Of a stretch of DNA of 56,796 bases, positions 23,113 through 50,907 are shown one piece after another. Position numbers and translations under genes: made by a program. Source of the DNA: an uncultured Candidatus Saccharibacteria bacterium (GTDB lineage Bacteria; Patescibacteriota; Saccharimonadia; CAILAD01; GCA-016700035); contig CAYMMM010000003.1 of NCBI GenBank assembly GCA_964391595.1, positions 1-56,796 on the forward strand, read 5' to 3'. The notes beneath the pieces were generated by a model. That model was not told the DNA's origin. It saw only the letters and a list, made by a program, of their open reading frames with translations, and did not search any database. Numbering within the stretch: the stretch's first letter is position 1; each line of letters begins with the position of its first letter.

Positions 23113-23817
23113 TCAGTTGATGAGACAGGCCTTGCGGTGCAGACGTTGCACCACGAAGATGAAGATGCCGCAGCACAACATCACCATGCCGAGGTTGAGC
23201 GCCCCGCTTGACGTGCCCCCGGTGTAGGCCAGGCGGGTCTGCGTGGTCTTCGGGGTATCGGGGCCGGGGCTCGACGGGGGAGCGGTACTTGCAGTCGGCA
23301 CCACCGTCGTGCTTGTCGTAGTGCTCGGAGCCGCAGCGGTCGTACTCGTCGTACTTGTTGTGGGCTTCGGAGCCGCGGTGGTCGTGCTCGTCGTGGTCGG
23401 AGCGACGGTCGTCGACGTCGTGGTACTGGTCGTCTTCGGAACCGTGGTGGTGGTCGAAGTGGTCGTCGAGGGCTTGGTGGGCGGCGGGTAGTGGCGGATG
23501 GTGGTGGTCGTCGTGTCCTCCGGACAGTCCACCTCGTCCTCATCCTCGGATTCGTCGTCGTTCCACTCCTCGTCGTCGTGGTGCCAGCTGTCCTCGCTGT
23601 CATCCCACTCTTCTTCCGAGTCGTCGGAGTTGTCGTGGTGCCAGCCGCTCTCGTCGCGAGGCTCGTGGCCGCCGTAACCACCGCGTGCGCTGGCGCCGGC
23701 TGCGGTGCCGGATGCCGACAAGGCGGCGAATCCGAGGAGGATCGTGGCGATCGCGAGGGTGATCAGGCTGATCGCGCGACGGAGCGTCTGCTTCGTCTTG
23801 GTAGGTGCGTGAGTCAT
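23113..23817 (-). CDS. Cell-wall-anchored protein with an LAxTG sorting signal (high-GC islet)
   Basis: Signal peptide, then an acidic W/H/D/E-rich block and a Thr/Pro stalk. The C-terminus is LAYTG, a hydrophobic segment and QRLHRK. Confidence 0.8.
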   Translation of the reverse strand: MTHAPTKTKQTLRRAISLITLAIATILLGFAALSASGTAAGASARGGYGGHEPRDESGWHHDNSDDSEEEWDDSEDSWHHDDEEWNDDESEDEDEVDCPEDTTTTTIRHYPPPTKPSTTTSTTTTVPKTTSTTTSTTVAPTTTSTTTAAPKPTTSTTSTTAAAPSTTTSTTVVPTASTAPPSSPGPDTPKTTQTRLAYTGGTSSGALNLGMVMLCCGIFIFVVQRLHRKACLIN

Positions 23818-31675: not shown

Positions 31676-33258
<1,583 letters not shown>

Positions 33259-34107
33259 CTAGAGCATCCCCGCTGCAGTTACAATCTGGCGCGTAGATTC
33301 GTCGCGCTCGCGTCGTCGGAGCGAAAAGAGCCGCTGGTTCGTTTTTTGGGTGAGTTTCTCGGCTCGACTGTGGGCGAGCGACATGTTGGTGAAGCGGCCA
33401 GCTTGTTGGGCGAGTTGCGACTCAAGCACAAGCTGCGTAATCGAAGTATTAAGCATAATTTGACTCAAATAATCAATAACGTGCTGGGCATTTGGCTCCA
33501 GGATGTAGTTGTCGGCAGTTATGATTTCGGTGGCTCCTTGCTCGACTTGGAGTCGCTCTTCTTCGGTGAGTTGTTGCGCCTCGAGCAGCAGAGTGAGTTT
33601 CGCGGGGCGCTGCAGAGTGAGTGATTGGTATGAGTTGTAATATGCCGTGGTGGTTTCATACTGACGCACGATCTCGAGAATTGGTTCTACCATGAAGTCT
33701 TCGCCAATGTCGGGCATCTCGAAGGCTCGCAGGGGTGCGAGATCGTAGTTTTTGAGCAAGTAATTTCCATGCGATCCAAGCACAATGATATCACTTGCTC
33801 CTGGACTATGTTCGGATTGGAGGATGCGTAGGATCTGCTCATCACTCGGTCCGGCCAGACCTGCAGGGGAGGAAATATAGAGGTGCAGATGTCGATTGAT
33901 CTTACCAAGCTCATTGTTTGAGTGATGTCGTACACGCAGGTCTTGGTAGATACCCCAAAGCTCATTGAAGAATAGTTTTGATGCGAGCACCTCGGCACGG
34001 ACTGCACGAATCTTGATGCTCGCTGTGTTTTGAAATACATCCGTCAGCTCTCGAATCGCCGAAACAGCCTGAAGTTCACGCTGGAGTTTTTTGGTCAGTA
34101 CACTCAT
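33259..34107 (-). CDS. atpG: F1 ATPase gamma subunit
   Basis: Position between alpha and beta, N- and C-terminal helices with a gamma-like C-terminus (RQIVTAAG), 282 aa. Confidence 0.8.
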   Translation of the reverse strand: MSVLTKKLQRELQAVSAIRELTDVFQNTASIKIRAVRAEVLASKLFFNELWGIYQDLRVRHHSNNELGKINRHLHLYISSPAGLAGPSDEQILRILQSEHSPGASDIIVLGSHGNYLLKNYDLAPLRAFEMPDIGEDFMVEPILEIVRQYETTTAYYNSYQSLTLQRPAKLTLLLEAQQLTEEERLQVEQGATEIITADNYILEPNAQHVIDYLSQIMLNTSITQLVLESQLAQQAGRFTNMSLAHSRAEKLTQKTNQRLFSLRRRERDESTRQIVTAAGML

Positions 34108-35522
34108 GATACTGGTACCTTTCCGGCCAATTGCTTGAGAATAGTGCCGGCGACTGTCTGAAATGACATCTCTGGCTTGAAGCGAGGTGCTGCGGCGCGT
34201 ACTGCATCTTTTACGCGAGACATATCGATAGCTTGGTCTTCTGCCATAAAGACAATAGTGAGGAGTATTTGCTGCTCGATCAGACTATATGATTCATCGG
34301 GTCCTTGATTGAATGCAAGCTTAAGACGCTGACCTAGTCGCAGCGCATCACGATATTGATCGGGGAGATCCTGGCCGAAGCTCGCAAACTGGCTGCTTTG
34401 CCGATACGCCGCCAAAGCCCGAAATGTATTTTGCGCAAGATTCTTGTGGCTTACTGACTGAGCTCGCCCACCAATACGAGACACAGAAAGCCCAGTGTTA
34501 ATCGGTGGAATGGTGCCGCGCTGTAACTCCTCGGTGTCAAATACGAGCTGCCCGTCCGTTATTGAGATAATATTCGTCGAGAGGTAACCAGTGATGTCAT
34601 TGTTGACCGTAGTCATGAGCGGTAAGGCAGTCAGTGTCGCGAGGTTATGGCTCAGTCTTCCCGCTCTCTCGAGTAGGGAAGAGTGCGCAAAGAACATGTC
34701 CCCTGGATAGGATTCTCGCCCTGGGGGTGTATTGGCAAGTAAGGCGATCTCGCGGTGCACCTTGGCGTGACTGAGCAAATCGTCATAAATAATGATGGTA
34801 TCCTTGCCATTCTGCCAGAAGAACTCGGCGATAGCGCAGCCAGAATATGGCGCGAGGTCTGTGAGTGGGAGCGAGGCGAAACTATCGGCAACGACCAACA
34901 CCATATGCTTGAGGGTGTCTGATTGTTTGAGTCTATGGATGATTGTGGCGATTTCTGTTTTTCGCTTTGCGATGAGTACCATGACAATTATCTTCTGTTT
35001 CTTTGCTTGATGCATTGCGGCTTGCAAAGCAAAGCTTGTCTTGCCTGACTTCGTGTCACCCATGATTGCGATGCGCTGTCCATTGACGATCGGGAAGAGG
35101 GTGTCGACTACTGCAACACCGGTCTCACACTGTTCATCGAGCTGATAGCGCTGGGCAAATCCTGGGGCTGGTGCGAAGACAGGCTGCTGTATCCGGGACA
35201 GAATCGCAGGGCCATCATCAAGTGGTCGAAGGAGGGGATCGACTACTCTTCCGAGTAGTGCCTCACTCGGATGGATGGCAAATGATTGCTTAGCGATAAC
35301 TGCAGCGGTACCAAGAGGCACTGCCTCGCTGGTCAGCACATTGACGCGGACGATATCGTCTTCAATCCGAGTTATGAGGCCGAGGGCACCGTTGGCGAAA
35401 ACGACTTCACTCCCCAGGGCTGCTCCAAACAGGCCAAGTACTTCTACGAGGAAGCGGTTACTTTGCACGACTTCACCATTCGGATTGCCTGCTTTGATGA
35501 GGCGTTGATAGACCTGGCTCAT
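34104..35522 (-). CDS. atpA: F1 ATPase alpha subunit
   Basis: Walker A GDTKSGKTS, PGRESYPGDMFFAHSSLLERA and ITDGQLVF. Confidence 0.92.
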   Translation of the reverse strand: MSQVYQRLIKAGNPNGEVVQSNRFLVEVLGLFGAALGSEVVFANGALGLITRIEDDIVRVNVLTSEAVPLGTAAVIAKQSFAIHPSEALLGRVVDPLLRPLDDGPAILSRIQQPVFAPAPGFAQRYQLDEQCETGVAVVDTLFPIVNGQRIAIMGDTKSGKTSFALQAAMHQAKKQKIIVMVLIAKRKTEIATIIHRLKQSDTLKHMVLVVADSFASLPLTDLAPYSGCAIAEFFWQNGKDTIIIYDDLLSHAKVHREIALLANTPPGRESYPGDMFFAHSSLLERAGRLSHNLATLTALPLMTTVNNDITGYLSTNIISITDGQLVFDTEELQRGTIPPINTGLSVSRIGGRAQSVSHKNLAQNTFRALAAYRQSSQFASFGQDLPDQYRDALRLGQRLKLAFNQGPDESYSLIEQQILLTIVFMAEDQAIDMSRVKDAVRAAAPRFKPEMSFQTVAGTILKQLAGKVPVS

Positions 35523-35971
35523 ACAGCGTGTACCATTTCTCGTAAATAAGCGCGACCTTGTTCTTGTGTGCCTAAGACCGACCAGTCATACACGGCATTA
35601 GGGGTTTGCACGACTACCCCAGCAATGAGGCTAGGGTCGGTGCGAAATGAGACCAGGACTGGCGCGGCGGTATTTTGTGCAAGTTGCATAAACCATGTCT
35701 GTATTGCATGTTTGTGATCACCGCCCAGTGCTACTGCACTGCGGATGAGGATTTGCTTGGCAGCAGCGATGTATTGGCCAAGCGCATGCGTAAGTTCCTG
35801 CGCAGTAGCCTTGGGGAGTTTGGTGAGTTCATTTGACTGCATCAGCGCCAGGAGCTCTGGAGAAGGACGTTTACGGGATTGCGTGAGGCGTGAATACGTT
35901 GAGACCTCGGCGATGACAGCGCGGAGCTGTTCCAGAGTCAGTGATGGATCGACGACGAGACGTTGCTTCAT
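35519..35971 (-). CDS. atpH: ATPase delta (OSCP) subunit
   Basis: C-terminal DPSLIAGVVVQ motif and operon position. Confidence 0.7.
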   Translation of the reverse strand: MKQRLVVDPSLTLEQLRAVIAEVSTYSRLTQSRKRPSPELLALMQSNELTKLPKATAQELTHALGQYIAAAKQILIRSAVALGGDHKHAIQTWFMQLAQNTAAPVLVSFRTDPSLIAGVVVQTPNAVYDWSVLGTQEQGRAYLREMVHAV

Positions 35972-36582
35972 GCGGCGAGGTCCTTTTTGATTGCGACCTT
36001 ATTTGCTTCGAGTCGTTCAAGGATAAATTCCTGTTGGTCACCAAATTCTACTCCCTGTACGCTGGCATTCAAGTAGTTCGCTAGCAAGCTTGCCGCATGT
36101 TCGTCGACAAGTTGTTGGACCCGCTGCATGACATTCTGCTGGTATGTTTGCATGTACTGGAGCTGTTGTTCAGATAGAGAATCGAGTGCTTGTTGTAATT
36201 TCTTAGAGTGGTCGAGGAGCAGTGCGGTTTGGTCTTTGCTGATAGTCTCGAGGGCAGTGACTTGTGCTGTGGTGGCTTGTTCAATCGCCGCGGAGCTCTT
36301 CTGAAGGGAGGCGCGTATGGTTTGATTGCTTTCTTTGTCAATCTCATCGACGAGCGAACGCATTTCCTTCGCAAACGGCGTCAGTGCATTGGCGACATGT
36401 TTGGCGACATCTTTCTCGAGGGTAGTGTGAAGTTTGGCCACATATTCCGGATTGAGGACAGCTTGCTTCAGCTCTTTTCGATAGCTCTTTTGAATCCAGA
36501 CGCGCTCACGATAGAGAATTACCAGCGCGATCAAAGAAACACTCATGCTGATAATAATGGCCACCCAGCGAAGCTCGATCAT
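35968..36582 (-). CDS. atpF: ATPase b subunit (peripheral stalk)
   Basis: One N-terminal TM helix, then a long coiled coil. Operon position supports the call. Confidence 0.65.
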   Translation of the reverse strand: MIELRWVAIIISMSVSLIALVILYRERVWIQKSYRKELKQAVLNPEYVAKLHTTLEKDVAKHVANALTPFAKEMRSLVDEIDKESNQTIRASLQKSSAAIEQATTAQVTALETISKDQTALLLDHSKKLQQALDSLSEQQLQYMQTYQQNVMQRVQQLVDEHAASLLANYLNASVQGVEFGDQQEFILERLEANKVAIKKDLAA

Positions 36583-36590
36583 ACTGTTAG

Positions 36591-37430
36591 CTACCCTCCA
36601 AGAATTAAGAATACTGCACTGCCGGCGCCAATGACGACTATTATGGCGAGACCAATCATGATGAACAGACTACGACGAATGATGCCTTTAGATAGTGGGT
36701 TGCGGCCGATGGAGTAGATACTCGATGAGATCGAGCTATACAATATAATACCCGATGCGAGCAGCGCCAAGACGACCACACCAATCGCCAGTAGTGCCTG
36801 GGTGTTGCTGACTGGCTTGCCGACGATATTCGCCAGAAAGCCACGCAGCCCATTCATAACCGGGCTGTTTTGCTCATTTGGTGGGTACCAATCTTGGACT
36901 TTTATGTCTGCATCAATCCGTCCGACTTGCACTGTCTGCTTGCCGCCTTTGCTATCAGAAATCTCCACTTTTTGCTTAGATGAATCATCCTGCGAAGTAA
37001 AATCTTGCTGTGCGATGCCAACCACCTTACCAGCAGTACTGGCGCGCATAGCTACACCACTGATAGGTGAAATCGTGAGGCTGTCGCCGGTGTGGATTTC
37101 TCCATTCGCAGTCGATACGAGAAGGCTGGCTGTACCTTCAGTAACTACTTGTACCTTGTTCTCATTATCGCCATATGCGATGAGTGATTTTGAGGGGCTT
37201 ATAGAAATACCAAGCAACGCATCGCGACGGTCGACTGAGGCCGTTGCGATAGTCGCAGCCTCGCCAGCAATGAGGCTGACGAGTGACCCGTCGGCGATCG
37301 TTTCTTTTGCGCTGTACCCTTGAGAGATAGGTGCAGCAGCAGCCTGCGCAGGAGCTATGCCTAGACAGCAAAACAAACTCATCGCAATGAGCGAAAGTAC
37401 TCGGATACCACCCTTTTGAGAAAGAATCAT
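36591..37430 (-). CDS. Secreted-domain protein ending in an ATPase c-subunit-like two-helix hairpin; first gene of the atp operon
   Basis: Signal peptide (..APAQAAAAP), a ~190-aa beta-rich domain, then helix, SIGRNP loop and helix. It occupies the slot where atpB/atpE are normally found. Confidence 0.7.
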   Translation of the reverse strand: MILSQKGGIRVLSLIAMSLFCCLGIAPAQAAAAPISQGYSAKETIADGSLVSLIAGEAATIATASVDRRDALLGISISPSKSLIAYGDNENKVQVVTEGTASLLVSTANGEIHTGDSLTISPISGVAMRASTAGKVVGIAQQDFTSQDDSSKQKVEISDSKGGKQTVQVGRIDADIKVQDWYPPNEQNSPVMNGLRGFLANIVGKPVSNTQALLAIGVVVLALLASGIILYSSISSSIYSIGRNPLSKGIIRRSLFIMIGLAIIVVIGAGSAVFLILGG

Positions 37431-38197: not shown

Positions 38198-41044
38198 ATG
38201 GTAAATAGAAAAAAAATACTTGCCGCAATCATCGGTGCATTTGCTGTAGCTATTATTCTTTTAGCCGTGGCGCGTCCCGCATCAGCAAATCCGGGGCGAA
38301 TCTCACTAAGTCCCGACCCGACCTCCGTAGTTGAGGGCCAAGATATGGTAGTTACCGTCCATCTTGACGAACCGATCATTACAGAAGAGGAAGAAGGATA
38401 TGTCACGATCAATCTGACCTCCAGTGATCCGGGCCTACTGAGCCTATCGGATTCTTCGATCACATTTCCGGCAAGTGAGTGGTCGGGGTCGAAGTCATTT
38501 ACAATATCAGCGCTTCCAGATAGTGTAATCACTGGTCACCAATCGCTTACGGTCTCATTTACGACTGATTCAAATTCGGAATATTACGATGGCTTCTCTG
38601 GAGATATAGATGTCACGTTTATCGATATCGAATTGAGTGGACAATTTGCTGGTGGCACGGGAACTGAAGCGGACCCATATTTGGTGGCGAATTGCGTGCA
38701 GCTCGCGTCAGTAGGAAGCGATCCTTTGCTCGCGGATTCATACTATAAGCTCGCAAACACAATCGATTGCTCAGATACGGTCAATTGGAATGGTGGTCAA
38801 GGCTGGGTGCCACTGGCTAGCTTCACGAATAGGTTTTCAGGCACGCTTGATGGCGATAATAATAGTATCACTGGGCTTTGGTCCTTGCGTGAGCCGGCAC
38901 CGGGTCTAGGCCTTTTCTCCTATACAGAAGATGCTACTTTTAAGAACCTCAATATAAGTGGAACAATCGCTAATTCAACAGAAGATTTAGGGACATGCTC
39001 GGGTGCAATCGCTGGAGCTGTATTTGGCTCAATCACAATCGAAAATGTCAGAAGTACTACCAATATTAGCGGTCTTCAAGACACGATCGGTGGGTTGGTT
39101 GGATGTATTCTAAACGGAGACGGAGCTAGCATTATTACAGGCAGTTCGGTCGATGCTACCTTAAGCTTGGGCGCTATCGGCGGACTCGTCGGGGATGCTG
39201 ATATATCCGGTACATCAAGTCTTACGATCGAGCATTCTACATCGACCGGCACTTTTTCTGGTGGAGATGTAGGTGGTTTGCTTCGCAGGTTTGTATATCG
39301 GGACTGGGATTCGGTTTCGAGCGGCCCCGCCTTGAATATCCTTGACTGTGGGTCAAGCGCCAATATTTCCGTCACAAATGTTGCAGGTGGGCTTGTGGAA
39401 AATATAGTCCTAGATCATCGGTGGGCAACGATACAGGATGCATATTTTACGGGGTCGATTGAGGCTAGTGCGGGGAGTGGTGTAGCGGGTCTTGTGAATA
39501 GAGTAAGTACATTTGACAGCAACCCAGCCGAAACGATTATCCAAAGAAGTTACGCTAGTACGTTAATCACAAGCGCGGCTGGAAATGTAGGTGGGCTTGT
39601 TGGAGTGGTGAGTTCCGACCATGCGGTCTCGGTTGAAGAAAGCTACTTTGGTGGGATTATAGATGCGACAGGTGATTTTGTAGGGGGTCTCATCGCGAGC
39701 TCGGATGGTAGTTCAATGATTGATAACTCGTATGCAGATGCTGAATTATCTGGTGATCAGTACGTTGGTGGCCTCTTAGGAGCCGGGGTTGCGGACATAA
39801 GTAATTCATTTGCTTTCGGGACAATCACAAGCTCTGGAACAGCACTCGGAGGTATAGCTGGATCAATTAGTGGGGGTACTATTGAGGATTCATTCGCTGC
39901 TGTTTCTGTCCCCGCAAATCAGCCTACCACGATAGGCGGGCTGGCAGGTGCAATTAGCGATATGACAATTGAGAATGCCTATGTTGATGCGGGGAGAACA
40001 GAGCAAGCTTGCTACTTTACAAGTGGGCCAGGCGACTCAAGCAGTGTCGATTGTAATACAGTAAACGATGATGGCTCAGATCCAAATTATTACTTTGATA
40101 CTGCTGTTAGCGCCCCCCTAGATCAGTGGGATTTTGACGCGGTGTGGAGTAGTAATGCATATTTCTATCCTTGCTTACAATGGCAAGATTTCTGCCAGAC
40201 TTTTGAGCCGCAAATGCTGTGCGAGATGGCGACCGCGACCGCGACGACAGCGCATGCTGCATGTGACATTCAAGTTCGATCTGGGTATGAGTATGGTGAA
40301 ACGACCTGGGAGGCGCGTTATAAGAAATCAGGTGATCTAGACTACAAGGTATATGCTCTCTCTGATAATACACTTGCCGAAATGAGCCTGACTGGCCTAG
40401 AGCCCGTATCAGATTATTATCTTGAATTCCGATTTACTAATAATTGGGGCGTAGGTGAGTGGGGGCGTGTCGAGGTGCGCACACTAGAGGGTCAAGCAGA
40501 AGGAAGCGCGGCAACTGGGTCTGCACGATCTGTTGTGTTTATTCAGCAATCTTCCGGGCCTTACTCCAATCGTCAGATTAATCTCGCTGACTTTTTAGAG
40601 TTCCTTTCTAATGGCAAGCAGGTTACTGGCTTACGAGAGGGTGACGTACTAACCTTCCAGGTAGATAATGAGTGGCATACCATAACGATTCAACAAATCC
40701 TGGACGATACCGTTATAGTGCTCATTCAGTCAGAGCCGCAGACGGCAAATCTGATGCCCGGCAGATCTACGACATTCGATGTAAACGGCGACAATACAAA
40801 TGATATCGAACTGACACTTGACGAGATAGCCGATAAAACGGCTTCTATAACCTTCAAGCAATTACGCAAGCCTCTCGCTACTACAGCATCATCAAGCTCG
40901 ATCACTGAAGAAGAAGTGCAGAGTCGCACGGAGCGCTATGGTTGGGTAGTGTGGCTGGTGGTTGGTGTAGCGGCTGCATTGCTAAGTACTATATATCTGA
41001 AGAATAGACATTTGGTGCATACGAAACAAGAATCGAAGGAGTAA
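38198..41044 (+). CDS. GLUG-repeat beta-helix surface protein 1 (C-terminal membrane anchor)
   Basis: Signal peptide, then a Calx-beta-like N-domain. Many GGL[VIL]G repeats spaced about 20-25 aa apart, an FN3-like domain, and a C-terminal TM with a basic tail. Confidence 0.85.
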   Translation: MVNRKKILAAIIGAFAVAIILLAVARPASANPGRISLSPDPTSVVEGQDMVVTVHLDEPIITEEEEGYVTINLTSSDPGLLSLSDSSITFPASEWSGSKSFTISALPDSVITGHQSLTVSFTTDSNSEYYDGFSGDIDVTFIDIELSGQFAGGTGTEADPYLVANCVQLASVGSDPLLADSYYKLANTIDCSDTVNWNGGQGWVPLASFTNRFSGTLDGDNNSITGLWSLREPAPGLGLFSYTEDATFKNLNISGTIANSTEDLGTCSGAIAGAVFGSITIENVRSTTNISGLQDTIGGLVGCILNGDGASIITGSSVDATLSLGAIGGLVGDADISGTSSLTIEHSTSTGTFSGGDVGGLLRRFVYRDWDSVSSGPALNILDCGSSANISVTNVAGGLVENIVLDHRWATIQDAYFTGSIEASAGSGVAGLVNRVSTFDSNPAETIIQRSYASTLITSAAGNVGGLVGVVSSDHAVSVEESYFGGIIDATGDFVGGLIASSDGSSMIDNSYADAELSGDQYVGGLLGAGVADISNSFAFGTITSSGTALGGIAGSISGGTIEDSFAAVSVPANQPTTIGGLAGAISDMTIENAYVDAGRTEQACYFTSGPGDSSSVDCNTVNDDGSDPNYYFDTAVSAPLDQWDFDAVWSSNAYFYPCLQWQDFCQTFEPQMLCEMATATATTAHAACDIQVRSGYEYGETTWEARYKKSGDLDYKVYALSDNTLAEMSLTGLEPVSDYYLEFRFTNNWGVGEWGRVEVRTLEGQAEGSAATGSARSVVFIQQSSGPYSNRQINLADFLEFLSNGKQVTGLREGDVLTFQVDNEWHTITIQQILDDTVIVLIQSEPQTANLMPGRSTTFDVNGDNTNDIELTLDEIADKTASITFKQLRKPLATTASSSSITEEEVQSRTERYGWVVWLVVGVAAALLSTIYLKNRHLVHTKQESKE

Positions 41045-41112
41045 TGCATTGCTGGTAAGTATAGGCAATACGGTTATGTTTGTGAGATACTGATAATAAG
41101 TATTTTCAAGTC

Positions 41113-44100
41113 ATGGAGGGCTGGGTGTCTGTAAGGATAGCCGGAACAACAAAAATGAAACGTATCGCAAAAAAAATCGAGAACTTGGGGCGCCTATCGC
41201 GGCTCTTAGTCGCAGTGCTAATATCATTGCCGTTATCGATATTCCCTTCTACTGCACAGCACACAAAGGCATTTAGTGGTACTGGTCTAGGTACAGCAGA
41301 GAGCCCATATCTTATTACTGATTGTGATGAGCTTCAGTCTATCGATATTGATGGCCAAAATTATGAAACAGAAGGCAAGACTTACAAGCTTGCTAGCGAC
41401 ATTGACTGTACAGCAACAAGTACGTGGAATAGCGGCCAAGGCTTTGACCCAATAAACGACTTTGGCGGCATCTTCGATGGTGATGGACACACAATTAATG
41501 GACTTACCATTAATCGACCATCGACTGATAATGTTGGTCTTTTTTCATACGCGGCCTACGAAGCACTTATTACAAGGGTGAGTTTGACGAACGTAAATAT
41601 AACTGGTGATAGCTATGTTGGCGGAATCGCCGGTGAAATAAATGGAACGCTTTTAGACGTTCATGTATCTGGCAGCGTAAGCGGTAGTAATGATGAATAT
41701 TATCAAGGAGTTGGCGGAATCGCCGGACGCAAAGGTAATACTGGATCTATTCTTGATCGAGTCAGCTTTGAAGGCACTGTCACTAATGCGGGTACTTCAA
41801 CCGGGGGTATCGTTGGGTATGCCGGCAATATTGGGGCACTTACAAATAGTTTTGTTAATGCATCAGTAAATGGTCAAACGCACACCGGAGGGCTCATTGG
41901 CTATATGGGATCGTGTTGTAATGTAGTGAGTAATACGTATGCTATTGGAGATGTGACCGGCACCACAAACGTCGGTGGATTAATTGGTCGCTATCAAGAA
42001 GTTTCCTCTGATGACAATAGGGTTGAAAACAGTTTTGCTGCAATTGCAGTGAGCGGTAGTTCGAACGTCGGTGCGGTTGTGGGTAGTATCAATAACATTG
42101 GCTCAACTCCGCTAACGAATCTGGCGTTTGATCAGGACATTGCGGGAGTGAGTGATTGTATTGGAGCCTCGGACTCGGGGGTCGTAAGCTGTACTGCTCG
42201 TAATACAGATGGGTTGAGCCCTGAATACCTACAAGACAGTGCAAACGAACCGCTTGCGAGCTGGGATTTTACCGACGTCTGGAATGAGGAGGTAGGAGAT
42301 TACCCAAGTTTAAGCCCTGTCACCGATCTGAGCGTTCCGGGTGCAGTTACTGGCATATCGGTTGACTACCCCAACTTGCCAAATGAAGCGGAGTTTAGTT
42401 TTACTGGGCCAGTAGATAGTGGATCATTCCCTGTGAGTTACTACGAAACAGAGGTTCGTTTAGCAGATTCGGACTGGAACAGTGTGGATGGGGGCAGTAC
42501 AAGCGACGCTTCTCCAATGAGTGTTAATAATTTATCACTTGGGACAGATTACGTTGTTCGCATCCGAGCAGTCAGCATATACGGGGCAGGAGACTGGACG
42601 GAGTATAACTTTAGTACTAGTCCTGCGGTTAATAGAGATATCAGCACATGTGAGCAGCTGCATGATATCGATGAGGATGCTTCGTTCTTAGATAACATAA
42701 CACTTACAGATGATATTGATTGCTCTGATATTGATAATTTCTCACCACTCAGTTTTGAAGACAGTTCGTATGCAGGTATTTTTGATGGCCAAGGTCACAC
42801 TATTTCGAACATAACAATGGAAGGCGATGACACCGGAGACTGGGGCCTGTTCAGCCATTTGGGTACTGGGGTTGTACGTGATCTTACAATTGAAGATGGT
42901 TCTATAGATGTTACTAATGATGCCTATGACTGTGGTGCTCTGGCTGGTGAGGCATATGGTACGACAATTACTGATGTCCATGTTCGTAATTATGATATAT
43001 CTTGCCGGTCTGTTGTCGGGGGGATAGTCGGTAATTACGACTCAGAGGACGGCGTAAATATTGAATTGACTAATCTCAGTGTTACTGGTGGATCAATGAC
43101 AGTAAGTGACAATAGAGCAGGTGGTCTATTTGGTGATGTGGATGTTAATGATGCATCAACCCTACTAGTTGAAAAAATATATTCTGATACAGCAGTAAAT
43201 TCTGAAGGGTCGGCAGGTGGTCTATTTGGTGAAGTTGACGTCGAAAATGACGAAGACGATGGCGATCCAGACGCTGTTATTACACTGAGAGATGCCTATT
43301 CTAAATCTATAGTAACGTCAACTGGCGATGATGTCGGTGGCTTGATTGGATACGCTGAAGTATATAACGATGGCTATGAGACTGTTTCCAAGATCGTCAT
43401 AGAAAACACCTATAGTTCGGGGTCAATCAGCGGATATTCAAATGTTGGTGGTTTAATTGGGGAATTGTATGATCTGGAATACGAGGGCGAAGAAGTCGAG
43501 ATCACTCATTCTTTTGTAACGAGCAGTATTAGTGACGAGGATTCCTCAAATGCTCATGCGGTGATCGGTTCTGAAATTGATATTGACGAGGGCCAATTGA
43601 CACTAGATGGTGTGTACTTTGATCAAACTGCCACCGGTAAAGACCAGGCACTCTTTGAAGATGATTACGCTGGATCATCTGCCATTAATACCGATGGCTC
43701 TGAGGGTGATTACTTCAAGAATAATGTCGAGAACCCTCCGCTAGACACATGGGATTTTGACGATATATGGCTAGTAAATGTAGATGACTATCCGACATTC
43801 ATTGGGCAACCATCTGAAGATATCAATATAGACATGAGTTCGGCAGAAGACGGATCACTGATCAATTTTACTGCGCAAGGATGTGATTCTCTTGGAGAAT
43901 GGCAGACTAGTAAAGAGTCCCAACTGGCCAAGCAAGATATCGGCTTTGATTACCCTGAGGGGCTGGTGAAGTTCGAATTGCTTAGCTGTGAAAGTGGCGG
44001 AGATGCTACTATTCAATTTACTGTTGTAACTAATCTAAAAGCAGGCGAAATTAGCGTTCGTAAATACAGCGAAACTCTTACTACCTTTACGACACTGACT

Positions 44101-44286
44101 GATGAGAATAGCAATGTGTCAATTGAAGAAGTGACAATTGATGATCAAGCTGCACTGCGTGTGACATATGTACTTACCGATGGCGGCTTACTCGATCAAG
44201 ACGGCTTAGTGAACGGCGAGATCGTTGACCCAGTAGGTGTGGCACAAGTAGCCCTGACTGCTCCAAATACAGGATCTGGCCATTAA
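41113..44286 (+). CDS. GLUG-repeat beta-helix surface protein 2 (two beta-helix modules, FN3-like domain, LTAPNTGSGH C-terminus)
   Basis: Signal peptide (an alternative ATG at 41155 gives MKRIAKK). Two FDG.GHTI..L entry motifs are each followed by VGG[LI][IVF]G repeats. Confidence 0.85.
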   Translation: MEGWVSVRIAGTTKMKRIAKKIENLGRLSRLLVAVLISLPLSIFPSTAQHTKAFSGTGLGTAESPYLITDCDELQSIDIDGQNYETEGKTYKLASDIDCTATSTWNSGQGFDPINDFGGIFDGDGHTINGLTINRPSTDNVGLFSYAAYEALITRVSLTNVNITGDSYVGGIAGEINGTLLDVHVSGSVSGSNDEYYQGVGGIAGRKGNTGSILDRVSFEGTVTNAGTSTGGIVGYAGNIGALTNSFVNASVNGQTHTGGLIGYMGSCCNVVSNTYAIGDVTGTTNVGGLIGRYQEVSSDDNRVENSFAAIAVSGSSNVGAVVGSINNIGSTPLTNLAFDQDIAGVSDCIGASDSGVVSCTARNTDGLSPEYLQDSANEPLASWDFTDVWNEEVGDYPSLSPVTDLSVPGAVTGISVDYPNLPNEAEFSFTGPVDSGSFPVSYYETEVRLADSDWNSVDGGSTSDASPMSVNNLSLGTDYVVRIRAVSIYGAGDWTEYNFSTSPAVNRDISTCEQLHDIDEDASFLDNITLTDDIDCSDIDNFSPLSFEDSSYAGIFDGQGHTISNITMEGDDTGDWGLFSHLGTGVVRDLTIEDGSIDVTNDAYDCGALAGEAYGTTITDVHVRNYDISCRSVVGGIVGNYDSEDGVNIELTNLSVTGGSMTVSDNRAGGLFGDVDVNDASTLLVEKIYSDTAVNSEGSAGGLFGEVDVENDEDDGDPDAVITLRDAYSKSIVTSTGDDVGGLIGYAEVYNDGYETVSKIVIENTYSSGSISGYSNVGGLIGELYDLEYEGEEVEITHSFVTSSISDEDSSNAHAVIGSEIDIDEGQLTLDGVYFDQTATGKDQALFEDDYAGSSAINTDGSEGDYFKNNVENPPLDTWDFDDIWLVNVDDYPTFIGQPSEDINIDMSSAEDGSLINFTAQGCDSLGEWQTSKESQLAKQDIGFDYPEGLVKFELLSCESGGDATIQFTVVTNLKAGEISVRKYSETLTTFTTLTDENSNVSIEEVTIDDQAALRVTYVLTDGGLLDQDGLVNGEIVDPVGVAQVALTAPNTGSGH

Positions 44287-46575
44287 ATGAGATTAGTCCG
44301 TAGGATTTTGAGCTTAACCCTAGTAGGCCTGTTGGCTACTAATTTAACGTATACCCCTATAGCGTTTGCTGTTGAGCCAGATACTACGATCGCTAGCTCA
44401 CCGGGATTAAAAACTACCGATACGACAGCGACCTTTGAATTCAGCGCCGACCAAGAGGAACCAATTACTTTTCAATGTAGAATTGATGGGGGTTCGTTAA
44501 GTTCATGTAGTAGCCCTTTTCAGACACCGACTTTAGATATCGGTGCACATGTTTTTGAAGTTCAGGCTACTAACGGTGACACTGAGACCGATGCCTCACC
44601 GGCGACATATGCTTGGGAAATTGTATCTCCAGAAATTACATCATGTGAAGAGCTGATCAATATCGATGATGTGCTTGATGGTGACTTTGAGCTCATGTCA
44701 GACCTTAACTGTGTTCCAGAAGGCAATGATGCGATGATTGGCGATAATCAAAATCCTTTCACGGGGAGCTTCGACGGTAATGATCATACAGTTACCATTG
44801 ACCTTGATCTTTCGGACAATGGTATCGGCTTGTTTTCTCAGGTCACCGATGGTGGAACAGTCAATAATCTGACGGTTGCTGGCTCAATTGGTGGCACCAA
44901 TGAAGTTGGTGGCATTGCCGGGGGAGCTACTGATGCGAGTTTTGATGATATCCATAACGAAGCCACAATAACTGGCGAAAATTCTGTCGGTGGACTCATA
45001 GGGTACATTCATGACGGTACGTCGATAATGAATTCCTCATCAAGCGGGAGCGTGACTGGCGTCAACTATGTTGGAGGCCTCGTCGGTAGATTGCATACAT
45101 CTTCGATAGCATCATCAAGTTCCACTGGTGAAGTGAACGGAGTTGATAATGTCGGCGGCGCCGTAGGGTTAATGACCGAAACTTCCGAAGTCGTCAACTC
45201 ATCAGCATCTGGTTTGGTGCAAGGAGCTAGTGCCGTCGGAGGGTTCGTTGGTGGATCGTACTGTTCAAGTTCGCACTATAGAAGCTCTGCAACGGGCAAT
45301 GTGATTGCGTCGGGCTCCGCGGTGGGTGGCTACGTCGGTGACGACGGCTGTGAGGGCCCGGGCAGTACCTATCAGGAATCCTTTGCAACTGGCAATGTAA
45401 CTGGTGGATCGCTTGTGGGTGGCTTTATTGGACAAGCTTTTGTCTCGACGCTTGATAAAACATATGCCCTTGGTGACGTAACCTCGACTGGGGGTGGCTA
45501 TGTTGGGGGACTCATCGGTTATTCAAACGGATTTGATGGGGCAGAAACTCAAGTAAATGAGTCATTTGCGCGTGGAGATGTTGTTGCAAATGGTACGAGC
45601 GTCGGTGGTTTGGTGGGCGGCACAAGTGGAGACGGTAATGTCTTTACAGACGTATTTGCTCGCGGGTCAGTAACAGGCAGTGGAATCGTAGGCGGGTTAT
45701 TGGGATATTCCACGGCTGGAACGACTACCACGAATGCGTATGCAACGGGGCTAATTACAAGTGGTGACGGAAATGTCGGTGGGCTGCTTGGAGCTGGAGA
45801 AGGTGGCACAGTTTTTAACTCGTCATTTTGGGACGAAGATGCAACGCAGATGTCACTTGGTGGGAATGGTACGCCGAAGACGACCGATGAAATGACTAAT
45901 GTCGATACTTATACACTCGAAACTACAGTCGGCCTTGCACAAGCATGGGATTTCGTCGATGACCCAAATGACGATGAAGGTACAGATGATATTTGGTTTA
46001 TTGACCAAGGCAATAACGATGGATATCCGTGCCTCACTTGGCTCAACAACAGCTGCGACTTTGCATCAGAACAAGACCCAGACGTATACGAAGATCTCAA
46101 TGGCGACTCAATCCCAGACAGTGAGCAGCCGAATGTCGGGGGTTATTACAAGGGTAGTACGGGTAAGTTTGTTGCCATGGACATGGGCGCTAATTGCGAA
46201 CTCACCGGCGATGACATGACTGAAGAATCTAATTTCCCTGTTGCTGACCCAGCATATGAATACGATAATGGCCTCTTTGAGTTCACTGCAGACTGCACAG
46301 TAGAGACCACAACTATTAAGCTGTACTACTACGATGTTGACATCACCGACTTAGTGGCTCGCAAATACAGTACAAAGACTAATGCTTACTTCACCTTAGA
46401 TGATGCTATCATCACCCAGCAGACCATTAACGGGCATAGTGTTGCCGTAGTGACTTATCAGCTCACCGATAACTCCGAACGAGATATGGATGAAGAGCCA
46501 GGCTCCATTGAGGACCCTGCTGGACTGGCGAGGTCGATCTTGAATGCTCCGAATGCCGGTATCGGTGGCATATAG
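44287..46575 (+). CDS. GLUG-repeat beta-helix surface protein 3 (LNAPNAGIGGI C-terminus)
   Basis: Signal peptide ending AFA, FDGNDHTV entry motif and more than 12 VGG[LF][IV]G repeats. The C-terminal domain is homologous to that of protein 2. Confidence 0.85.
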   Translation: MRLVRRILSLTLVGLLATNLTYTPIAFAVEPDTTIASSPGLKTTDTTATFEFSADQEEPITFQCRIDGGSLSSCSSPFQTPTLDIGAHVFEVQATNGDTETDASPATYAWEIVSPEITSCEELINIDDVLDGDFELMSDLNCVPEGNDAMIGDNQNPFTGSFDGNDHTVTIDLDLSDNGIGLFSQVTDGGTVNNLTVAGSIGGTNEVGGIAGGATDASFDDIHNEATITGENSVGGLIGYIHDGTSIMNSSSSGSVTGVNYVGGLVGRLHTSSIASSSSTGEVNGVDNVGGAVGLMTETSEVVNSSASGLVQGASAVGGFVGGSYCSSSHYRSSATGNVIASGSAVGGYVGDDGCEGPGSTYQESFATGNVTGGSLVGGFIGQAFVSTLDKTYALGDVTSTGGGYVGGLIGYSNGFDGAETQVNESFARGDVVANGTSVGGLVGGTSGDGNVFTDVFARGSVTGSGIVGGLLGYSTAGTTTTNAYATGLITSGDGNVGGLLGAGEGGTVFNSSFWDEDATQMSLGGNGTPKTTDEMTNVDTYTLETTVGLAQAWDFVDDPNDDEGTDDIWFIDQGNNDGYPCLTWLNNSCDFASEQDPDVYEDLNGDSIPDSEQPNVGGYYKGSTGKFVAMDMGANCELTGDDMTEESNFPVADPAYEYDNGLFEFTADCTVETTTIKLYYYDVDITDLVARKYSTKTNAYFTLDDAIITQQTINGHSVAVVTYQLTDNSERDMDEEPGSIEDPAGLARSILNAPNAGIGGI

Positions 46576-46608
46576 CCAAGCTCGCAAGACTATAATAAAG
46601 TTAAGACT

Positions 46609-47238
46609 ATGAAGAGTCGTACGCTTCGCTTCGTTGCCATTGCACTAGGCATAGCCATACTAGTGGGTGGGCTGACGTGGCTCTTGAAGCGTCAGGTAGA
46701 AAAGCCCCAGGTTAATACTCAAATTGTCGTGTCCGATGATGACCCGAGTAGTAATAAACCCGAAGATGAAGGGTATGTGTGGAGGGGTGCTCCAGATGAG
46801 CCTAAACAAATAGAGATAAGCTCTATCGGAGTTAAAGCTTATATCCAGAAAGTTGACGTTACGAGCAAGCAACAGGTCGCAGCGCCAAACAATATATATT
46901 TAGCCGGATGGTTTGTACGTTACCCAAAGCCAGGCGAACAGGGACTGAGTATCATCGATGGACATATAGTCGATAAGTCTGATCAAGGGGTATTTACACG
47001 GCTGGGCGAAATGCAGCCTGCTGATGAATTCTCGGTTGTATTCGGCGATAATTCCAGAAAGACCTTTTCGGTTATTGAGACACGAGTGGTGGATACAGAT
47101 AAGGCGGAGTCAGTATTATTCTCTCAAAATCCATTGGTGCGCAATCAGCTTAACCTCATTACTTGCGGAGGTACTTATGACGAGTCTTCAAGGGTTTTTA
47201 ACAAGCGCGTCATTGTGATCTCGGAGCTTATCCAGTAG
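46609..47238 (+). CDS. Sortase-family transpeptidase (class E/F-like)
   Basis: N-terminal TM anchor, His in IIDGHI, catalytic Cys in LNLITCGG and Arg in KRVIVIS. Confidence 0.8.
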   Translation: MKSRTLRFVAIALGIAILVGGLTWLLKRQVEKPQVNTQIVVSDDDPSSNKPEDEGYVWRGAPDEPKQIEISSIGVKAYIQKVDVTSKQQVAAPNNIYLAGWFVRYPKPGEQGLSIIDGHIVDKSDQGVFTRLGEMQPADEFSVVFGDNSRKTFSVIETRVVDTDKAESVLFSQNPLVRNQLNLITCGGTYDESSRVFNKRVIVISELIQ

Positions 47239-47327: not shown

Positions 47328-47867
47328 ATGGATGGTCTAGAAAAGCGTTCTTCTGGCGGCTACGATCGAGCCCACAATAGCCAGGCAAAAAAATCTTCAG
47401 CTGTTCGTAAGCTAGTAAGCAAGATCGGCTCAGGCGCTGGTAGTTTGATTCGTTGGATTGCCGGCTCTAGGCTAGCACAGGTTATGCTTATAGTTCTTTT
47501 GCTTATTGGCGGTGGCTTTGGACTTTATAAGATTGGGTATTCACGCGGTGAGCAAGCACAGAAAGCACTGGATGAAAAGAGCCGCCCAAAGATCCCTAGC
47601 CGTCAGTCAAATAGTAGCAGCTCGCCCCGGCCAAGTAGCGCTATTACATCTTATGTTGGTGAGATCACAGAAATTTCAGCAGCTGGCTTGACTGTAAAAA
47701 CTACCGATAACGCGACACACAAAGTTAGCTTCGGGCAAAGCTTAGTTGTAACTGATGTAAAAGGCGCAAAGTCTGACGCGAAAAACCTGAAGAAGGGTCA
47801 GAAGATTGCTGTTTCAGGCACTGACAAGGATGGCGAACTCTCTGCTACACGCATTCGAATACGTTAG
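47328..47867 (+). CDS. Membrane-anchored hypothetical protein with a small C-terminal beta domain
   Basis: One TM (VMLIVLLLIGGGFGLY), a Ser-rich linker and a C-terminal ~70-aa domain. Confidence 0.55.
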   Translation: MDGLEKRSSGGYDRAHNSQAKKSSAVRKLVSKIGSGAGSLIRWIAGSRLAQVMLIVLLLIGGGFGLYKIGYSRGEQAQKALDEKSRPKIPSRQSNSSSSPRPSSAITSYVGEITEISAAGLTVKTTDNATHKVSFGQSLVVTDVKGAKSDAKNLKKGQKIAVSGTDKDGELSATRIRIR

Positions 47868-48578: not shown

Positions 48579-49118
48579 TTGAATAAGAAGAAAGTGCTGG
48601 CCGTTGGGTTAGCTTCACTCGGCATAGCAGGTGTACTCGGGAGTGGTGCTGCTCTTGCAGAAACTGGTTCGGGGAGCACGCTTGCAGAAAAAATAGCTAC
48701 TCATTTTAACCTCAACAAAGATGAGGTGCAGAAGGTTCTCGACCAGGATCGCGCTGATCACCAAGCTGATCGTGAGAAGCAGTACGAAGAGCGCTTGCAG
48801 AAAGCCGTTGATGATAAGAAAATTACTTCCGAGCAGCGAGACAAAATTCTCGCGAAGCACAAAGAGCTCGAGTCGTACTTCGAGTCACAACGCGATGCTA
48901 TGAAAGACAAGACACCACAAGAGCGTCGGGATGCTATGAAGACCAAGATGGATGAGATCACGCAATGGGAAAAAGACAATAATATCCCCGCTGGATATCT
49001 GCATCCTGGTGGTCCAGGTATGGGTCATGGGTCTGGGCGTGGTAAGGGCATGATGCATGGTGGCTCGGACAGCAATGATCCGGCGCCGGATGTAAGCCCT
49101 AGCTCGCAAGTACAGTAG
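48579..49118 (+). CDS. Secreted helical protein with LTxxQ-like repeats and a Gly/His/Met-rich tail (Spy/CpxP-like)
   Basis: TTG start 7 nt after AAAGGAG. Signal peptide, ITSEQRDKI and TPQERRDAM motifs, and the tail GPGMGHGSGRGKGMMHGG. Confidence 0.6.
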   Translation: MNKKKVLAVGLASLGIAGVLGSGAALAETGSGSTLAEKIATHFNLNKDEVQKVLDQDRADHQADREKQYEERLQKAVDDKKITSEQRDKILAKHKELESYFESQRDAMKDKTPQERRDAMKTKMDEITQWEKDNNIPAGYLHPGGPGMGHGSGRGKGMMHGGSDSNDPAPDVSPSSQVQ

Positions 49119-49220: not shown

Positions 49221-49892
49221 ATGAAGATTCTCATCATTGAAGATGAATATAAGATTGCGAACGCGTTGAAGCGAGGGCTCGAGCAAGAGCGTTATTCTGC
49301 CGAAGCCGTCTACGATGGTGAGTCGGGCTTATCTGCTGCTGAAGCCGAAGACTATGATCTGATAGTACTCGATCGTATGCTTCCTGGGGTCGATGGTCTA
49401 GAGGTTTGTCGGCGCTTGCGTGACGCTGATAATAAGACGCCCATCCTCATGTTGACAGCAAAAGACCAGGTGCGTGATCGAGTGGCTGGTCTCGATGCCG
49501 GGGCGGATGATTATCTCGTCAAGCCATTTGCCTTCGAGGAGCTTTTGGCTCGCATTCGCGCGCTCTTGCGTCGCCCGAACCAAGCCCAGGACACGGTACT
49601 TAGGGTGGGCGATCTCACGCTCGATCCTGCTACCTTTTCTGTAGCGCGATCAGAGAAGCCTATCGAGCTGTCGGCAAAGGAGTTTGCACTGCTTGAGTAC
49701 CTCATGCGCAATGAGGGTCGTGTGGTCAACAAGGATACCATCATCTCGCATGTGTGGGAGTACGATGCTGACATCTTGCCAAATACTGTGGAGGTATACG
49801 TCGGGTATTTACGCAATAAAATCGATCGACCGTTTAAGAACGACCTCATCAAGACGAAACGAGGCTTTGGGTATGTACTCTCAGCTTCATAA
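49221..49892 (+). CDS. OmpR/PhoB-family response regulator
   Basis: Receiver domain (LIVLDRMLPG) plus a winged-helix output (LSAKEFALLEYLM, RGFGY). Confidence 0.92.
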   Translation: MKILIIEDEYKIANALKRGLEQERYSAEAVYDGESGLSAAEAEDYDLIVLDRMLPGVDGLEVCRRLRDADNKTPILMLTAKDQVRDRVAGLDAGADDYLVKPFAFEELLARIRALLRRPNQAQDTVLRVGDLTLDPATFSVARSEKPIELSAKEFALLEYLMRNEGRVVNKDTIISHVWEYDADILPNTVEVYVGYLRNKIDRPFKNDLIKTKRGFGYVLSAS

Positions 49893-50907
49893 GAGACTGT
49901 TGCGTGTGCGAAAGCGCCTGATCGGCCTCCCGCCAGCTACAAAGCTGACAGCGGGCTATCTTGCGATTATCATGACATTGTCGATTGGCTTTAGTGTAGT
50001 GTTATTCCAAATATCTGCAAACCAACTGCATCGAGGTTTGCGGCGCCCAGCGATTGGTGTCGATGCTGAGCTGCCGCAGTTTTTTGACTTGTACGAACGT
50101 ACACGCTTGCAGCAGATTTTTTCGGCAGAGTCAGAACTCCGCTCTAATCTCGTATTGTTTAATATCTTCGTACTTTTGGCGGGTGGAGGGGCGAGTTACG
50201 TGCTGGCGAAACGAACGATTCGCCCGATCGAAGAAGCGCTTGAAGCCCAGAAGCGCTTCACTGCCGATGCTTCGCATGAATTGCGTACGCCTCTCACCGC
50301 TATGCAAACCGAGATCGAGGTGGCCTTGCGCGACCCCAAGCTGAAGCCTTCGGAAGCTCGAGCATTACTTCAAAGTAATCTTGATGAAGTTGTGCGTGTG
50401 CAGCTCCTTGTCGAGGGCCTACTGCGACTTGCCAGGAAAGGCGAACTCGATATTCGTAAGCGTGTGAAGATAGCCGACCCTATGATGGCTGCCATAAAAA
50501 GGGTGCGCCAAGCTGCGCAGCAAAATCATGTCAGTCTGAAGCTGGACGCTCCAGTTGCACGTGTGGCTATAGATCCTGGTGCTATTGAGGAAGTGCTTGT
50601 CATCTTGCTCGATAATGCCATCAAGTATGGTCCACAAAATTCCACCGTTTCTCTCAAGGCTCACCAGGAGCGAGATACGCTTGTCTTGGAAGTGCGTGAT
50701 CAGGGCGAAGGGATTGCTGATGAGGATATCCCGCATCTTTTCGAACGCTTTTATCGTGGTGATAAGAGCAGGACCAAGCAGTCGGTGGAAGGCTTTGGCT
50801 TAGGATTGTCGATCGCCAAGCAAATCATCGAAGCCCATAAAGGTTCAATTCGCGTCTCGTCTGGGCCTGATGGCTCAACTTTCTCAATAAACCTGCCCTT
50901 GGGCTAG
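49873..50907 (+). CDS. Sensor histidine kinase, partner of the OmpR-type regulator
   Basis: The ATG at 49873 overlaps the regulator's stop by 20 nt. Two TM helices, H-box SHELRTPLT, N-box LDNAIKYG and G-box GFGLGLSI. Confidence 0.88.
   Translation: MYSQLHKRLLRVRKRLIGLPPATKLTAGYLAIIMTLSIGFSVVLFQISANQLHRGLRRPAIGVDAELPQFFDLYERTRLQQIFSAESELRSNLVLFNIFVLLAGGGASYVLAKRTIRPIEEALEAQKRFTADASHELRTPLTAMQTEIEVALRDPKLKPSEARALLQSNLDEVVRVQLLVEGLLRLARKGELDIRKRVKIADPMMAAIKRVRQAAQQNHVSLKLDAPVARVAIDPGAIEEVLVILLDNAIKYGPQNSTVSLKAHQERDTLVLEVRDQGEGIADEDIPHLFERFYRGDKSRTKQSVEGFGLGLSIAKQIIEAHKGSIRVSSGPDGSTFSINLPLG

Follow-up and report, generated by a model that had tools for sequence, protein, structure and literature searches.

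A probable tail-less xPNTG sorting signal that appears tied to the choice-of-anchor U domain and a class-F-like sortase in Saccharibacteria

GLUG beta-helices, the choice-of-anchor U (CoA-U) domain, and the anchoring of surface proteins by sortases have all been described before. A locus of an uncultured Candidatus Saccharibacteria bacterium (GCA_964391595.1, contig CAYMMM010000003.1, positions 1-56,796; this whole stretch of 56,796 nucleotides is referred to as the window) combines them with an element that appears to be undescribed, namely a lineage-wide, tail-less xPNTG sorting signal tied to the CoA-U domain and to a dedicated class-F-like sortase in Saccharibacteria. The locus comprises three paralogous beta-helix surface proteins (P1, P2, and P3), predicted to be exported by Sec, and one membrane-anchored class-F-like sortase. 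P2 and P3 are probably adhesins that this sortase attaches through the tail-less signal, with P1 displayed via a transmembrane (TM) helix. Across related genomes, the conserved unit is the sortase together with proteins that end in xPNTG, with or without a preceding CoA-U domain, and the GLUG beta-helix is the commonest of several passengers.

The four open reading frames (ORFs) of the locus all lie on the + strand, encode proteins of 948, 1057, 762, and 209 aa, and are separated by 68, 0, and 33 nt, in agreement with the gene order, sizes, and spacing given in a preliminary description of this DNA. The close spacing suggests an operon, as that description proposed; a promoter and terminator scan of the locus returned counts equal to those of shuffled sequence and thus carries no information on this point. 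The label "giant" that had been applied to the three large proteins is too strong for products of 760-1060 aa.

Tail-less xPNTG ends and the linked sortase

The homologous C-terminal domain previously noticed in P2 and P3 is the CoA-U domain of NCBIfam NF041766 (cut-off 32 bits). In P2, it spans residues 944-1044 (43942..44244, +) and scores 59.6 bits in the full-length protein and 64 bits on the C-terminal fragment, and in P3, it spans residues ~655-748 (46249..46530, +) and scores 35.1 bits when the C-terminus is scanned alone. Both proteins then close with the reported LxAPN[TA]G ends, LTAPNTGSGH in P2 and LNAPNAGIGGI in P3, each running directly into a stop codon verified in the DNA. The signal itself, counted from the alanine of the motif, occupies 44260..44283 (+) in P2, where it matches the family profile, and 46546..46572 (+) in P3. 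The residues past the glycine, SGH and IGGI, respectively, include neither a membrane segment nor an arginine or lysine.

Homologs of this C-terminal domain end in one of two forms. In some, a hydrophobic helix and an R/K tail come after xPNTG, as in the classical tripartite signal; in others, only 1-12 residues separate xPNTG from the stop codon. Because relatives bear the same motif inside the classical tripartite signal, xPNTG can be regarded as a genuine sorting motif. As in canonical signals, a folded domain precedes a PxTG core at the very end of the chain. In contrast to them, position 1 is alanine or valine rather than leucine, and P2, P3, and ~72% of the closest representatives stop 1-12 residues past the glycine. 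The latter figure comes from a CoA-U profile search over 1.84 billion cluster representatives, which retrieved 6057 clusters at E <=1e-3 and 1115 at E <=1e-30. Among the best 139 representatives, 100 are tail-less, 22 TM-tailed, and 9 intermediate, and 8 have another LxxTG motif with a TM segment. A set of 180 non-redundant tail-less ends follows the profile V-V-G-[AV]-P(100%)-N(86%)-T(99%)-G(100%)-[LFI]-G-G, with a median tail of 5 residues and an arginine or lysine in 79% of cases. The tail-less peptides considered as putative sortase substrates are VALTAPNTGSGH and SILNAPNAGIGGI, with the consensus VVGAPNTGLGGR. None of the curated NCBIfam models covers the tail, and no description of APNTG or VPNTG as a sortase motif was found in the literature searched.

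The form of the tail goes together with the preceding domain and with the sortase. CoA-U is carried by 43 of 46 tail-less ends versus 10 of 34 TM-tailed ends (Fisher p = 1e-9, for loci that are not independent of one another). In a tree of the catalytic domains, the partners of TM-tailed substrates gather in one sortase subclade and those of tail-less substrates, the sortase of the window among them, in the remaining subclades.

Read-through or an alternative genetic code was considered as another account of the short tails, given that P2 and P3, and likewise P3 and the sortase, lie in frame with a hydrophobic segment after each stop. This account was rejected. The stop codons of the locus are ordinary TAA and TAG, so that an alternative code is not indicated; what follows each stop is the signal or anchor sequence that begins the next protein, its charge lying ahead of the helix; and dozens of unrelated loci end alike with different genes downstream.

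The sortase (209 aa; 46609..47238, +) had been assigned to its family in the preliminary description, and PF04203 matches it with 59.4 bits (gathering score 26.6). Residues 2-27 form its N-terminal TM anchor, and residues ~62-209 are taken as the catalytic domain, in which H119 (DGH), C186 (LITC), and R200 do not vary among 23 homologs. The AlphaFold (AF2) model has a predicted local distance difference test (pLDDT) score of 90.2, and 115 sortase chains in the PDB match it at E <=1e-3, which supports the eight-stranded beta-barrel fold of sortases. The enzyme thus looks active, judging by its intact triad and confidently predicted fold. Searched by sequence, it has no match in the PDB, and a profile search gives only distant sortases. 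Class F (NF033748) is the best class at 101.9 bits, a score under the curated cut-off of 166, whereas classes D and GN reach only 20-25 bits (GN 24.5), and no class C model is among the NCBIfam hits. A homolog with 41% identity is named a class F sortase by NCBI. Foldseek on the model places class C pilus sortases on top (E 1.5e-9) with classes A and E within ~20-fold, and hence does not separate the classes. By eye, neither a DP[WFY] lid motif nor a TM helix at the C-terminus is seen in the sequence.

The likeness to the class F sortases of Actinomycetota, such as Cutibacterium acnes SrtF and the SrtF paralogs of Streptomyces and Actinoplanes, therefore lies in the best class score, the N-terminal TM anchor, and the His-Cys-Arg triad. 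In contrast to those enzymes, the present sortase stays below the class cut-off, occurs in Patescibacteria, and is paired with [AV]PNTG instead of LPXTG and with substrates that mostly lack a TM segment and charged tail. Its homologs come nearly all from metagenome-assembled genomes (MAGs) of Candidatus Saccharibacteria or Saccharimonadales, with a few labelled Dojkabacteria or Berkelbacteria. A sortase family has been noted as common in the Candidate Phyla Radiation (CPR), with no more said on it (Méheust et al.). Within the N-terminal extension, W58 and G60 (YxWxG) are found in 81-84% of the sortases beside tail-less substrates, whereas Y and V occupy these positions in 88-94% of those beside TM-tailed substrates. 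This split could be a specificity determinant or phylogenetic signal alone.

The pairing of sortase and substrate was followed in 80 loci from species-representative genomes, many of them MAGs, that were collected by sortase alignment. ORFs were called, hidden Markov models of the sortase and of CoA-U were applied, and counts were made over the 74 sortase genes whose available upstream sequence reached 3 kb or more; because loci were picked via the sortase, adjacency figures are conditional on its presence. A gene for an xPxTG substrate lies directly upstream of the sortase in 47 of the 74 cases, with gaps that are often 3-20 nt. Most of these adjacent substrates carry the CoA-U domain (38/47), and 32 have a short or intermediate tail and 15 a TM tail. 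When the range is widened to 9 kb upstream on the same strand, 55 of the 74 sortases have a substrate, of which exactly one is found in 42 loci, two in 11, and three in 2. Downstream, few xPxTG genes were seen within 10 kb, about eight by eye.

GLUG beta-helix proteins make up 21 of the 47 adjacent substrates and 26 sortase partners within 9 kb. The synteny of this sortase with GLUG proteins, on which the preliminary description had staked its reading, thus recurs beyond the window, including in tandem arrays. The GLUG triad as the conserved partner does not hold up, as a single substrate is usual and the passengers vary among GLUG, C-type lectin, PKD/cadherin-like, and unannotated domains. 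A reverse test that started from P3 homologs gave a similar pairing, in which a sortase closes the array in four of six loci. It is present in L084 and L086, follows three GLUG/xPNTG genes in L085, and follows four xPNTG genes and a 150-aa gene in L089. The remaining two loci, L087 and L088, each have a tandem array of four tail-less genes, and the range fetched for them contains no sortase. In both, a small protein (184-198 aa) with LADTG, a TM segment, and an arginine ends the array (13646..14242 in L087; 15765..16319 in L088). A sortase/CoA-U cassette of the typical Saccharibacteria kind was also seen under the label Candidatus Limnocylindria (Chloroflexota; L006, DATHJH010000030.1), a label that is probably a binning or labelling error.

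Dedicated cassettes, such as marine proteobacterial class GN with its single target or SrtB with IsdC, likewise pair one sortase, in tight linkage, with a single substrate or a small number of substrates of variant motif. Those cassettes belong to another sortase clade, motif, and phylum, and their substrates keep the TM tail.

The beta-helix proteins and their anchors

P1 (948 aa; 38198..41044, +), P2 (1057 aa; 41113..44286, +), and P3 (762 aa; 44287..46575, +) share the features that first drew attention to them. Arrays of VGG-type turns are present in all three, with 6, 8, and 10 occurrences of GG[LIV]xG in P1, P2, and P3, respectively, and Pfam GLUG (PF07581) passes its gathering score of 20.5 in each, at 32.2, 24.7, and 51.4 bits. 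The entry motif, F/YxGx[FL]DGxx[HN]x[IV], likewise recurs as reported, once in P1 (residue 213), once in P3 (residue 158), and twice in P2 (residues 117 and 553). Because the motif occurs twice in P2, this protein is taken to hold two beta-helix modules. The signal peptides claimed for all three correspond to hydrophobic, signal-like N-termini, as judged by eye and by hydropathy. The FN3-like inserts attributed to P1 and P2 fared unequally: that of P2 passes the Pfam cut-off of 25 (residues 411-497, 28.7 bits), and that of P1 stays sub-threshold (14.2 bits, E 0.05).

From N- to C-terminus, P2 consists of the signal-like segment, two GLUG modules with the FN3 domain between them, CoA-U, and the APNTG end; its true start may be at M15. 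P1 begins with a signal-like segment and an immunoglobulin (Ig)-like region, followed by the GLUG beta-helix (~160-640), the FN3-like insert, a domain of ~120 aa, and a TM helix. As had been stated, a C-terminal TM anchor is found only in P1, where hydropathy indicates a hydrophobic helix at W916-L934 (40943..40999, +; window values >1.6 at residues 914-935). A K/R/H-rich basic tail, KNRHLVHTKQESKE, follows, and no LPXTG-like motif precedes the helix in the P1 sequence.

Structure prediction places the expected beta-helix in P3. Its AF2 model, for which 38 homologs were used, reaches a mean pLDDT of 85.1 and runs from an Ig-like domain through a right-handed beta-helix (~120-520, pLDDT >90) and a linker to a beta-sandwich at residues 617-750, with strands at pLDDT ~90, which holds the Ig-like CoA-U domain. 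Residues 754-762, which hold the motif, are disordered in the model. Since the motif lies among disordered residues beyond a well-folded sandwich, it is predicted to be accessible.

The helix resembles that of the streptococcal Zmp/IgA1 proteases (6XJA, 6XJB, 7UVK). Residues 182-322 of P3 align by sequence to a solved IgA1 protease beta-helix (E 2e-6), and IgA1 protease beta-helices are the sole significant matches of the whole P3 model in a Foldseek search of the PDB; a sequence search with P1 found no match there. In contrast to these proteases, P1-P3 lack an M26 metalloprotease domain, and the beta-helix constitutes the whole passenger. Pfam reports only GLUG, fn3, and Peptidase_M26_N on P1-P3. 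More than 3400 GLUG beta-helix homologs were found in bacteria and archaea, with annotated anchors that include LPXTG, the type IX secretion system (T9SS), surface-layer homology (SLH), and PGF. With so many homologs and so many kinds of anchor, the building block is not new. By domain analogy, P1-P3 are probably adhesins for host or substrate glycans.

The anchor of P1 deserves separate attention as the preliminary description had cast this protein as the membrane-anchored base of a fibre. The closest homolog of P1 residues 163-762 is an 883-aa protein of another locus (L032; 45% identity over 600 aa), which past the shared FN3-like domain continues with CoA-U and VPNTGLERQ and is encoded directly upstream of a sortase. 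Because this ortholog carries CoA-U and VPNTG, the TM helix of P1 is better read as an alternative anchor than as a pilus base. The ~120-aa C-terminal domain and TM module of P1 recur in L036. On sequence comparison, P1 is a paralog of P2 and P3 with a predicted membrane anchor in place of the sortase module, and TM helix and sortase module seem to be interchangeable surface anchors on an orthologous passenger.

Proposed attachment and competing explanations

According to the reading favored here, which we hold to be probable, P2 and P3 would be exported by Sec, and the sortase would recognize their exposed xPN(T/A)G. C186 would attack the bond between position 4 (T/A) and the glycine, forming a thioester after position 4 and releasing the short peptide, and the protein would then be passed to an amine of a wall precursor or of peptidoglycan, which would leave the beta-helix attached at the cell surface. 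P1 would be displayed through its C-terminal membrane helix. The missing retention segment may be offset by the tightly linked and presumably co-expressed sortase gene, with gaps of a few nt, by a tail that is short and in most cases basic, and possibly by docking or retention through CoA-U. Cleavage by this sortase, the acceptor molecule, any role of CoA-U, and the adhesin function are all inferred. A precedent for a substrate without a hydrophobic segment is found in Staphylococcus aureus, in which endogenous SrtA incorporates an LPETG peptide with a cationic cluster only, ~20-fold above LPETG-amide (PMC4723074). More tentatively, CoA-U with [AV]PNTG and a tail of 1-12 residues might be a distinct sorting signal that is widespread in Patescibacteria and needs no membrane retention; the CoA-U domain would dock on, or be kept close to, the dedicated and co-encoded YxWxG sortase subclade and so take over from the hydrophobic and charged tail, which is considered obligatory for sortase substrates, and this would be the main route by which epibiotic Saccharibacteria fix their variable adhesins to the wall. 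This wider proposal is somewhat less likely to be right than wrong.

Several points weigh against sortase attachment of P2 and P3. No substrate could be recognized upstream of 19 of the 74 sortases, and in L087 and L088 the tail-less arrays come without a sortase in the range that was fetched. The APNAG of P3 is a rare variant with alanine in place of a threonine that is kept in 99% of the family, and P3 may therefore be a poor substrate or no substrate; SPNTGLGGI is the end of its ortholog P0080, at 91% identity. The sortase tree was made by neighbour joining on ~150 residues, and the adhesin role is argued from domain analogy, that is, from the beta-helix and from the lectin domains of homologs. 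We know of no biochemistry on this clade of sortases, and class F enzymes in general have no established physiological role (PMC13251363; PMC8225981).

Some of these points would suit release, in which P2 and P3 are secreted or loosely wall-bound, the sortase trims them or acts elsewhere, and the motif is a relic. It is well established that S. aureus proteins losing the hydrophobic and charged tail are secreted instead of being anchored, so a tail-less signal could by this precedent mean release, and both the deviation of P3 at the scissile position and the two arrays without a nearby sortase fit it. A relic would decay, however, yet the P, T, and G of the motif are kept at 99-100% over the 180 tail-less ends, tight sortase adjacency is maintained, and tail-less ends are lineage-wide and co-vary with the sortase subclade. 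Release is thus considered unlikely. Somewhat less likely again is transfer to an acceptor other than peptidoglycan, whereby the xPNT carboxyl would be joined to a surface-layer component or to a small conserved neighbour that holds the adhesin at the membrane. Such a membrane-held partner would explain a substrate without a TM tail, and candidates are at hand in a DUF5666-like TM protein that adjoins the sortase in eight other loci and in a small helical protein directly upstream of it in L001 and L004. These neighbours are, however, found in a minority of loci (~10/80) and so cannot be a general requirement, and no acceptor motif was identified.

The pilus-like fibre of the preliminary description, in which the sortase polymerizes P2 and P3 head-to-tail or joins them to P1 as membrane base, was suggested by three paralogs in a row ahead of a sortase and by the TM helix present in P1 alone. 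Several secreted paralogs beside a sortase are indeed a feature of SpaA/RrgB pili with their class C sortases, arrays of three or four xPNTG proteins with a sortase recur in L085 and L089, and class C enzymes head the Foldseek list, closely followed by classes A and E. Pilus loci are distinguished, however, by features that are missing here, as P1-P3 have no [YF]PK, and hence no lysine of the pilin motif WxxxVxVYPK, and no Cna, SpaA, FctA, or other isopeptide domain in the Pfam scan. The only sortase within the window matches class F best, with no class C model among its NCBIfam hits. In addition, most sortases with substrates have just one, the passenger domains are interchangeable, the P1 ortholog is itself a sortase substrate, and the L085 paralogs all end in xPNTG with no TM base among them. 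A fibre of this kind is accordingly very improbable.

Identity with another surface structure, the Pam pilus of CPR, was also considered and rejected. Pam pili share with the present locus their occurrence on Saccharibacteria and the placement of their genes near the ATP synthase operon. Their pilins are Ig-fold subunits assembled by donor-strand exchange with chaperones and without a sortase (bioRxiv 10.64898/2026.03.03.709456); the two systems are unrelated, and no homology was seen.

Neighbouring genes and biological meaning

Directly downstream of the sortase lies the gene for the small DUF5666-like TM protein (47328..47867, +), which Pfam DUF5666 matches at 22.5 bits, below its cut-off. 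Its homologs lie on the same strand within 220 nt of the sortase, up- or downstream, in the eight loci mentioned above, and a ninth was found in L036 at ~4.1 kb. A small secreted helical protein with the end W..DNNIP.GY (48579..49118, +) is encoded 1.3 kb downstream in the window, beside a two-component system (49221..50907). Its homologs detected by phmmer are small genes that immediately precede the sortase in L001 (9509..9997) and L004 (9440..9979), and by eye a W..(D/N)NI(P/S)..Y end is also seen in small genes between substrate and sortase in L084 (5116..5553) and L089 (14443..14895). Both the DUF5666-like and the helical protein are possible accessory components of uncertain membership.

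Other putative surface proteins are encoded on the - strand of the window. Two adjacent paralogs of 463 and 507 aa (7861..9252 and 6263..7786) have an N-terminal TM anchor and a Thr/Ser/Pro-rich C-terminal stalk, and both end tail-less in P(V/T)PSTGGGNTTN. These ends may represent a second, xPSTG kind of tail-less signal without CoA-U; the proteins have no Pfam match and no homologs in the fetched loci. A 234-aa protein (23113..23817) combines a signal peptide, an acidic region, and a Thr/Ser/Pro stalk with LAYTG, a TM segment, and RLHRK, which indicates that the same genome has classical LAxTG substrates. The F-type ATP synthase operon (31936..37430, -) and the GLUG genes are divergent, with the gene for a 1674-aa CBM_4_9 protein (26566..31590, -) on the far side of the operon.

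The tripartite signal is the textbook basis of sortase anchoring, and two of its three parts appear to have been lost throughout a lineage that strictly keeps the pentapeptide and the linked sortase. If the sortase does process these ends, a substrate motif and a physiological role would be defined for a class-F-like sortase clade, and the lineage would have an alternative way of holding the substrate at the sortase. Short tail-less motifs and their cognate enzyme could, in addition, serve sortase-based protein ligation. Saccharibacteria live attached to host bacteria through factors that are largely unidentified, and, under the same condition of processing by the sortase, a simple sequence rule, a CoA-U domain with a terminal xPNTG, would provide a list of their surface adhesins.

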